From positions 41,478,001 through 41,542,000 of the forward strand of contig OX597819.1 in NCBI GenBank assembly GCA_951406725.2: a stretch of 64,000 nt of DNA, in the 5' to 3' direction. Each line of letters opens with the position of its first letter. Positions within the stretch are counted from its first letter, which is position 1. A program made the position numbers and the translations under genes. The DNA is from Octopus vulgaris (Eukaryota). The notes below the pieces were generated by a model. That model had not been told where the DNA came from. It did not search any database and saw only the letters and a list, made by a program, of their open reading frames with translations. Positions 37,901 to 40,900 of this stretch are shown one piece after another.

Positions 37901-40900
37901 CAGCATCGGTTATCAAGCGGTAGGGGAAGAGAAATATAAACACAAAGTCACCACACATGCACGCATATACATACACACGTATACATACACACGCATATCC
38001 AACGGGCTTCTTAACAGTTTCCGCCTACGAAATTCATTCACAAGGCGTTAGCCGACGGAGGTTATAGAAGAAGACACTTACTCGAGGTAACGCAGCGTGG
38101 AATTGAACCTGGAACCACATGGTTGCAAAGCGAGCTTCTTAACTACGCAGCCACGCCTGGCAGCCATTACATATCTATTATATAAAATCCGTTCTGTCTG
38201 TGTGTGTGTGTCTCCTACGATCTCGGGCATCCTCCATCCGATTGCGCTCAAATTTGATATGTAGATACCGACGGTATCAAGGCGTGTATAAGTCTTGAAA
38301 AAATTACAAAAATCGATTCCAGGTGAGAATGCAATCGATAAAGCCGTTTTTCTTCTTTTGCTGGTGTCTCAAATTTAGGTTAAGTCAGTGTTTCTCAAAG
38401 GGGAGCCCTATGGGACGGTCGGACAAGTTGTTTTGAGAAAATTTGGTTAAAATGTTTGACAACTCAGCACCGTCCATTGGACGTGGGGGGGGGGGCGTTT
38501 TGCTCGTATATTTATATAAATAACAAAAGGGATGCAAAGAATCAACCAGAATCCAAAGTAAGCTACCAGCCTGGCGCATGGCTATCGAAAAGATTATGGT
38601 TACGGCTAGCATGTAACCTTACCAGCTTTCTGAAAATTCAGGAATCGCAGTGGTAGAGGGTATGTATAAAAATTGACCAGATAATAGGAGCAAAATGGGG
38701 GAGTATATCTTAATTCTGCTAGTTGGCAGCTTTTACGCAATCTTTTGATTACATAAGCGCCACATCAACCGTCACGCATCTATAAAAGAATATATACCTC
38801 TCTTTTACTCTTTTACTTGTTTCAGTCATTTGACTGCGGCCATGCTGGAGCACCGCCTTTAGTCGAGCAAATCGACCCCGGGATATTCTTTTGTAAGCCC
38901 AGTACTTATTCTATCAGTCTCTTTTGCCGAACCGCTAAGTGACGGGGACGTAAACACACCAGCATCGGTTGTCAAGCAATGCTAGGGGGACAAACACAGA
39001 CACACAAACACACACATGCATATATATATATATATATATATATATATATATATATATATATATATATATAGCAATAGTAATTCTCTAAACGAGATATAAA
39101 CAGTAACTGCTCCATAACATAAGGGACATTAGCCATTTGAATGTGGCTAGGGACAGGGCAGGGCGGTGGGAGTGTTACTGATGCATTTAGCCCCAGGCGA
39201 TCATCAACGTCACCAGATAGGCTGACACCATCACGGTGTCCTCTATCCTGCAAAGGGAGATCATTCCCCGAAGAAGCGGATGCCACATACGGACCCAGGT
39301 TTCAAGGTATTTGCCTATCATCAACGTATGGCAGGCACCGCATCAGTATCACCCCCACCACCCTGCCCTGTCCCTAGCCACATTCAAATGGCTAATGTCC
39401 CTTATGTTATGGAGCAGTTACTGTTTATATCTCGTTTAGAGAATTATTATTGCTGTCGAACAGATTTTCGAAATCAGTAAATGTATTTACGTGAAAATCT
39501 ATATATAAATATCCTGCACAGGAAGTTGTTCGTCGAGGAGCGGTGCCTGCCATACGTTGATGATAGGCAAATACCTTGAAACCTGGGTCCGTATGTGGCA
39601 TCCGCTTCTTCGGGGAATGATCTCCCTTTGCAGGATAGAGGACACCGTGATGGTGTCAGCCTATCTGGTGACGTTGATGATCGCCTGGGGCTAAATGCAT
39701 CAGTAACACCCCCACCGCCCTGCCCTGTCCCTAGCCACATTCAAATGGCTAATGTCCCTTATGTTATATATATATATATATATATATATATATATACATA
39801 TATACGACAGGCTTCTTTCAGTTTCCGTCTACCAAATCCACTCACAAGGCATTGGTCGGCCCGGGGCTATAGTAGAAGACACTTGCCCAAGATGCCACGC
39901 AGTGAGACTGAACCCGGAACCATGTGGTTGGTTAGCAAGCTACTTACCACGCAGCCACTCCTACGCCTATATATCAATATACATACGTACTTACATGTGT
40001 GTGTGTGTGCCCGCGCGCGCGAGCGAGTCTGTGCTTGTGTTTGCATTTGTTCCCCACCACCACTCGACAACTGGTGTTGGTGTGTTTATGTCCCCGTAAC
40101 TTCGCGGTTCGGCAAAAGAGGTCGATAGAATAAGTATCATTTAACAAAAAGTAACTACTGGGATCGATTCATTCGATTAAAGCAAATGACTCAAGGCGTT
40201 GCCCCAGCATGGCAGCAGTTCAATGACTGAAGCAAGTAGAAGATAAAAAATGTATGTTATCTTTTACTGTTTATTTATTCAAGTCGTTTAGACTGCGACC
40301 ATGCTCTGGTACCATGCTGTGGTACCGCCTCGAACTATTTTAGCCGAACGGATTGACCCCAATACTCATTTTTTTTTTTAAAAAGCCTGGTACTTGTTCC
40401 ATCGGCTTCTTTTGCCGAACAGCTAAATTATAGGGAAGTATGGGATCTTTTCCTTTTGAAGGCCAGATTTCAACACAATTTCTAGTTAACTAAACACTTT
40501 AAAACTTCGTATACTGGTAGAATGTGTCAAAAGAAAACATTATTTTCACTTGGCTTTCTTGATAAATTTGTAATTCGTTTGTTTAACGTAGTTTGATTTT
40601 TCGAATTTTAACCAATCCTATGCTCTCTTTTGAGCTAAAATCATTTGCTGCGTCTAAAACTGAGACAACATCTTGTAACTAACCCTAACCCTAACCCTAA
40701 ATTTTTTTTCTTAATTGTTAAATTAATTTAATTGCTACGCGTGTAAAAAAAACTAAAGCAATGAAAAATAATTTAAACAATTAACATACAAAATAATTCT
40801 ATAATTTTTATACACACGCTTTCCGTATACGTACGGAAAGCGTGTGTATAAGAATTATAGAATTATTTTGTATGTTAATTGTTTAAATTATTTTCCATTG

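Follow-up and report, generated by a model that had tools for sequence, protein, structure and literature searches.

A 64,000-nt stretch of Octopus vulgaris DNA (contig OX597819.1, positions 41,478,001 to 41,542,000), here called the window, contains, at positions 39070–39767, a recent insertion of a small and common mobile repeat with a hammerhead motif. The preferred reading, to which we give a probability of about 0.7, is that the element is a non-coding non-LTR retrozyme and a non-autonomous Penelope-like element (PLE), which was inserted in trans by a PLE enzyme, with a linear multimer as the likelier template. The route that animal retrozymes take into new sites has so far been inferred. 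Vertebrate retrozymes have been argued to be non-autonomous PLE derivatives related to pLTRs, in a preprint that calls its own life-cycle evidence limited and mostly vertebrate (bioRxiv 10.64898/2026.07.22.740005). A young retrozyme-type unit that features a PLE tail and an inversion would be a direct footprint of a retrozyme–PLE partnership. If this is true, PLE enzymes would be shown to move retrozymes and linear and circular templates would be separable by sequence, and the high copy number of the family permits a test of one template against the other.

Anatomy of the insertion and its genomic site

The anatomy of the element was read from the sequence of the window. The 71 nt at 39340–39410 are repeated 357 nt further on, at 39697–39767, apart from 2 mismatches, so that the forward-strand copy consists of one full non-coding unit (39411–39767, 357 nt, 45.7% GC, with a rod-like predicted fold) preceded by the end of another unit, a pLTR-like terminal redundancy of 71 nt. 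This copy already spans the unit junction at 39410/39411. Upstream of it lies an inverted, 5'-truncated copy of 272 nt on the reverse strand (39070–39341), which is the reverse complement of 39540–39767 followed by 39411–39454 and differs from the forward copy at 1 position in the 228-nt part and 1 position in the 44-nt part. The 44-nt part is a tail (39070–39113, reverse strand) that is found only at the left end of the insertion. The copies are joined head to head, and the 2 nt at the junction (39340–39341) belong to both. Both outer ends of the insertion are 3' ends of the ribozyme-sense strand and each abuts a (TA)n tract. The left tract (39021–39070, 50 nt) is the central microsatellite of the host repeat, and the first 3 nt of the right tract (39765–39796, 32 nt) are shared with the end of the element. 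A target-site duplication is not readable within the (TA)n tract, and the window holds no further copies of the 357-nt unit beyond this locus. The first-pass annotation of this DNA had described a 357-nt unit with a 71-nt redundancy and an inverted copy, and both descriptions were confirmed.

The flanks of the insertion are the two halves of one bipartite, tRNA-headed, SINE-like repeat on the reverse strand (38800–39975), whose head features A-box- and B-box-like motifs recognized by eye at about 39880–39965. The halves are 86–93% and 90–97% identical to those of the four closest sister copies in the window, all of which have a TA-rich tract at the place that matches the insertion site. The repeat lies in a cyclophilin intron on the reverse strand (42564 to 37163, with GT..AG ends), and reverse-strand cyclophilin exons flank the insertion on both sides. 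The sister copies and the flanking exons thus bear out the earlier placement of the element in the (TA)n tract of a SINE inside a cyclophilin intron. Two multi-exon cyclophilin paralogues face each other in the window (4326–9600 on the forward strand and 29000–42700 on the reverse strand), and their matching exons show about 55–67% protein identity. The same intron holds, on the opposite strand, a Leu-type tRNA gene (42367–42450, forward strand) whose anticodon is CAA and whose variable arm is long. An inverted-repeat element at about 40440–41220 is MITE-like, with a near-perfect central palindrome of 83 nt (40745–40914); it splits another repeat, and its arms carry short telomere-like TAACCC runs. 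Two open frames on the forward strand were also seen elsewhere in the window. The frame at 51649–52014 has no significant Pfam match but, when inspected by eye, resembles the C-terminal portion of a LINE reverse transcriptase, and the frame at 54803–55000 presumably resembles a retroelement aspartic-protease region.

The unit itself has no credible reading frame, as had been noted before. None of the eight reading frames tested from the element matched Pfam. In protein searches, the inverted block's longest open frame gave no match to proteins of near length, and of 138 candidates among longer proteins none passed. An ORF for a reverse transcriptase and GIY-YIG endonuclease was not found at the locus. 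In its length, GC content, and lack of a protein match, the unit fits a non-LTR retrozyme, for which 150–450 nt, less than 50% GC, and no protein are expected. The predicted fold of the monomer is stable both as a linear molecule (z = −4.05) and as a circle (z = −3.5), and 0 of 100 shuffles were as stable in either case.

The hammerhead motif and its family

The element features a type I hammerhead at 39551–39595 on the forward strand, with a predicted cut at 39589/39590, and the same 45-nt string is present on the reverse strand at 39286–39330. The earlier report of a hammerhead in the unit was confirmed. With shuffled sequences, 0 of 100 gave two matches to the string, and a scan of the whole window with a generic type I motif retrieved these two hammerheads only. 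Rfam detected no hammerhead at either its gathering or its E-value thresholds. Both core boxes are present. Helix I has 6 bp, helix II has 3 bp above a U-U mismatch, and helix III is formed by a self-complementary octamer (39581–39588) that pairs fully with a second copy in a duplex of −9.8 kcal/mol (computed). In the isolated motif the lowest-energy fold differs from the active hammerhead fold. This dimer design with a self-pairing helix III has been described for animal type I hammerheads (PMC4209133), and the ribozyme of this element would probably work only as a dimer.

There is one departure in the core. Position 3 is U and faces G8, so that a U3-G8 wobble replaces the C3-G8 pair, and this is the case in both copies. 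A U3-A8 pair is a known natural covariant that is active (PMC3088659) and that is found in the hammerheads of Schistosoma PLEs (PMC4209133). A single natural U3..G8 variant, which has a 2-nt insertion, has been mentioned (PMC7151607), and a literature search retrieved no paper that reports how active a plain U3-G8 core is.

Contigs from public sequencing runs place this motif in a family. Among the listed runs, 18 contain half or more of the sampled words and come from four organisms; none of the listed runs that contain the stretch is recorded as RNA, and X5, being RNA by guess only, does not count here as a sign of transcription. The runs with matches to the stretch belong to 10 studies, one of which is possibly the source of the window itself. 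Contigs from four runs (X1, X4, X5, and X12) of three organisms were compared with the unit at 85% likeness, which gave 1079 matching contigs in X1, 866 in X4, 51 in X5, and 345 in X12. The matches are spread over all identity bands and many are only 90–95% alike, and three of the four runs hold hundreds of distinct contigs, which indicates a high-copy and diverse family. Joints between the end of one unit and the start of another were seen in contigs of X4, X5, and X12. A contig of X4 with a depth of 3321 and 11 differences bridges 39423–39506, a contig of X1 bridges 39444–39506, a contig of X12 covers 39492–39560, and a contig of X5 covers 39411–39693. None of the contigs of the four runs spans the whole unit or two successive units. 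The 357-nt head-to-tail, circularly permuted unit is, as judged from these contig sequences, a family trait, since contigs bridge the joint, the tail, and the ribozyme in relatives. The first-pass annotation had proposed a recent, reverse-transcribed animal non-LTR retrozyme and had called for other copies with the same permuted unit; the high copy number and the end-to-start joints in the public contigs support the former and supply the latter. Exact-pattern scans gave 0 matches in metagenome contigs and in viral contigs.

Contig depth is far higher at the unit junction than over the hammerhead, although contig depth cannot rank the parts of a stretch; a peak at the junction would be expected from 5'-truncated copies whose ends lie near the tail. 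Behind 39506, the loose ends of X1 and X4 contigs are similar to window positions 39509–39538, with 21 of 30 letters alike when compared by hand. Loose ends in X5 lie at 39454 and 39457, with the reservation that contigs map ends unreliably. One X5 contig departs from the unit after the tail at 39457 into 255 unrelated letters, which either are flanking genomic sequence or lie inside a longer partner element. Additionally, in an X12 contig with a depth of 2.5, two opposite-strand stretches of the unit are joined at 39618/39709, a second inversion junction in the family.

Four variants are listed inside 39551–39595 in these contigs, T39561C, G39562A, T39572C, and G39585A, and all four sit at places of the hammerhead where change is tolerated or improves it. 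T39561C is the variable position 7 and T39572C is in loop II. G39562A turns the core into U3-A8 and restores a Watson-Crick 3-8 pair. It occurs in 7, 0, 10, and 7 contigs of X1, X5, X4, and X12, with 79, 0, 52, and 52% of the summed depth, respectively, these depth shares not being copy numbers. G39585A makes helix III a perfect palindrome, with shares of 27, 0, 30, and 20% in the same order. No change of U3 is listed in the family contigs at a 5% threshold. The variant pattern suggests that the ribozyme of the family may be under selection, and the U3-G8 core of this copy is probably weaker than the U3-A8 core of many relatives.

The second motif (39286–39330) is in the sense orientation in the cyclophilin pre-mRNA. 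Self-cleavage of the pre-mRNA by this motif was considered and judged unlikely, because the antisense arm would be transcribed before it and, in the predicted lowest-energy fold, pairs with all 45 of its 45 nt. The local effect of the insertion would instead be a 228-bp hairpin in the cyclophilin pre-mRNA, which is a plausible editing substrate.

Insertion mechanism and the nature of the template

PLE insertions typically consist of a partial tandem with an adjacent inverted 5'-truncated copy and a 30–40-bp tail at one end, and they are biased towards microsatellites (PMC8557442, PMC3846280). The locus has the same layout, with a partial tandem next to an inverted 5'-truncated copy, a tail at the left end only, and flanking (TA)n tracts. 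The tail of 44 nt is slightly longer than the published 30–40 nt, which counts against the PLE reading. The work on a purified anole PLE protein, as presented in PMC11167929, revealed that the protein cuts and extends both DNA strands and prefers AT-rich DNA, that in vitro the tail is bounded by two internal starts of reverse transcription on the RNA, and that unprocessed RNA is used, ribozyme cleavage not being required. The case for mobilisation by a PLE enzyme comes from the insertion footprint, and no autonomous partner was found.

On this basis we propose a model for the enzyme, the order of priming, the template, and the state of the ribozyme. The unit would be the hammerhead-bearing, ORF-less end of a PLE joined head to tail. 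Acting in trans, a PLE reverse transcriptase-endonuclease would have cut both strands of the (TA)n tract, and both DNA ends would have primed on a longer-than-unit RNA in which the hammerhead was uncut. Synthesis of one strand would have begun at 39767, which lies 178 nt downstream of the cut site, and would have covered 428 nt. For the other strand the start would lie 44 nt further downstream, 222 nt past the cut site, and 272 nt would have been copied. The head-to-head joining of the two cDNAs would then have used the 2 nt that they share. In this model a linear read-through multimer is the more likely template than a single circle.

The template was longer than one unit, because the forward copy itself contains the unit junction. 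The first-pass annotation had concluded that the template was circular or multimeric from the inverted block, which reads across the point where the forward copy ends. A template longer than the unit stands. This read-through is not an independent sign of a circle, because the forward copy already holds the junction, and the narrower claim that the locus is a copy of a circular RNA of about 357 nt goes beyond what the locus shows: the 44-nt overhang matches a PLE tail, and a linear multimer explains the locus equally well. Duplicates derived from a single unit show 1 difference in 228 sites, and those derived from neighbouring units show 3 in 115, whereas one circular template would be expected to give equal rates within and between units. 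The difference is not significant (one-sided Fisher p = 0.11). At 2 sites the 71-nt block at 39340–39410 has a letter that neither of the other versions has, and at one of these sites it is the majority letter of the family (70–81% of the summed depth in all four runs); this difference also falls at a CpG site. The mismatch pattern would be a weak hint towards a linear multimer, which is favoured over a circle by about three to one.

The alternative that fares best keeps the family and the enzyme and takes as template a 357-nt circular RNA, produced by hammerhead cleavage and ligation and copied for more than one turn. It is clearly less probable than the linear multimer. Circles are abundant for the retrozymes of coral, mussel (350–390 nt), and axolotl (330–350 nt), and the proposed model has them integrate from a circular template (PMC7229834). 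The stable circular fold (z = −3.5) fits this model, and both cDNAs cross an intact cleavage site as a ligated circle would permit, although an uncut linear multimer yields the identical read-through. The 2 differences of the first 71-nt block are not expected from one circle without later mutation. The U3-G8 core, being in both copies, must also have been carried by the source RNA, which counts against this alternative.

It is considerably less probable that there is no true 357-nt unit and that three 5'-truncated ends of an autonomous PLE were stacked in tandem and inverted, with a spacing of 357 that is specific to this locus. Stacked truncated ends are a normal PLE product (PMC8557442, PMC3846280), the inverted copy stops at the tail, as a truncated upstream copy would, and the exit of the X5 contig at 39457 would agree. 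However, the diverged and deep contigs of X4 (39423–39506) and X1 (39444–39506) bridge the tail to downstream sequence and make the continuity from tail to hammerhead a family trait, and no long protein contains the longest open frame of the unit, which weighs little. A DNA-level rearrangement or assembly fold-back at a plain satellite unit is highly improbable. Long inverted repeats that are near-perfect and lie between (TA)n tracts do pose assembly difficulties, but the inverted block has two substitutions of its own and a 44-nt part that is missing at the right end, both sides of the insertion show the host repeat in correct continuation, and the layout fits a known biological footprint.

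Relation to known retrozymes and Penelope-like elements

The class, the layout, the U3-A8 core, and the U-U in helix II have all been published. This family was not found in the papers searched, though it may be present in repeat libraries or in the supplements to PMC7229834 and the preprint. A literature search on hammerhead ribozymes of Octopus bimaculoides gave no paper, and one on cephalopod retrozymes gave one work, on PLE clades. A repeat annotation of Octopus vulgaris lists recently active Penelope families, and the word ribozyme is absent from its main text (PMC13282606). A bolder and tentative proposal, which we hold to be possible but doubtful, is that this is an undescribed and still active invertebrate retrozyme family whose insertions carry a PLE two-start tail, whose core is in compensatory change with U3-G8 and U3-A8 coexisting in three organisms, and whose circles are abundant in vivo.

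The element is similar to the animal non-LTR retrozymes in PMC7229834 (mussel, 350–390 nt; axolotl Rtz331 and Rtz353; coral) in having a non-coding unit of 357 nt with a GC content below 50%, a type I hammerhead with a short self-complementary helix III, a high copy number, a head-to-tail junction, and a stable predicted fold. The U-U at the base of helix II is common to this motif and axolotl HHR_Amex2 (PMC7229834). Unlike those retrozymes, the core is U3-G8 or U3-A8 rather than C3-G8 and the locus holds 1.2 units. Additionally, the inverted copy seen here is not described in the main text of that paper.

Insertions of endonuclease-bearing PLEs (Pen2a_Av, PMC3846280; PAc, PMC11167929; PMC8557442) are described as having a partial tandem, an inverted 5'-truncated copy, and a tail at one end, as well as a small overlap at the inversion point, an AT-rich microsatellite target, and a hammerhead upstream of the 3' ends, all of which are present here. 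The differences from those PLEs are that this element has no reverse transcriptase or GIY-YIG ORF, that the tail is 44 nt instead of 30–40 nt, and that the unit is 357 nt instead of about 3 kb.

PLE hammerheads occur as paired motifs on opposite strands, 100–700 bp apart (PMC4209133). The minimal hammerheads of the Schistosoma PLE Cercyon, as described in the same paper, have a U3 core with A8, as do many members of this family, together with a dimer-type helix III and two nearby motifs on opposite strands. Cercyon has a long helix II and a short helix I (PMC4209133), whereas helix I here has 6 bp, helix II is short, and helix III has 2–3 bp, and the motif is nearer to canonical retrozyme motifs than to that of Cercyon.

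The relation proposed here, a pLTR-derived retrozyme unit moved by PLE enzymes, is the one proposed for vertebrate retrozymes (bioRxiv 10.64898/2026.07.22.740005). The activity rule of that preprint is two consecutive units with complete motifs, and under it this locus would not qualify as active. The preprint argues mainly from vertebrates, in which it uses co-occurrence and similarity to pLTRs, whereas the argument here draws on the footprint of an insertion.
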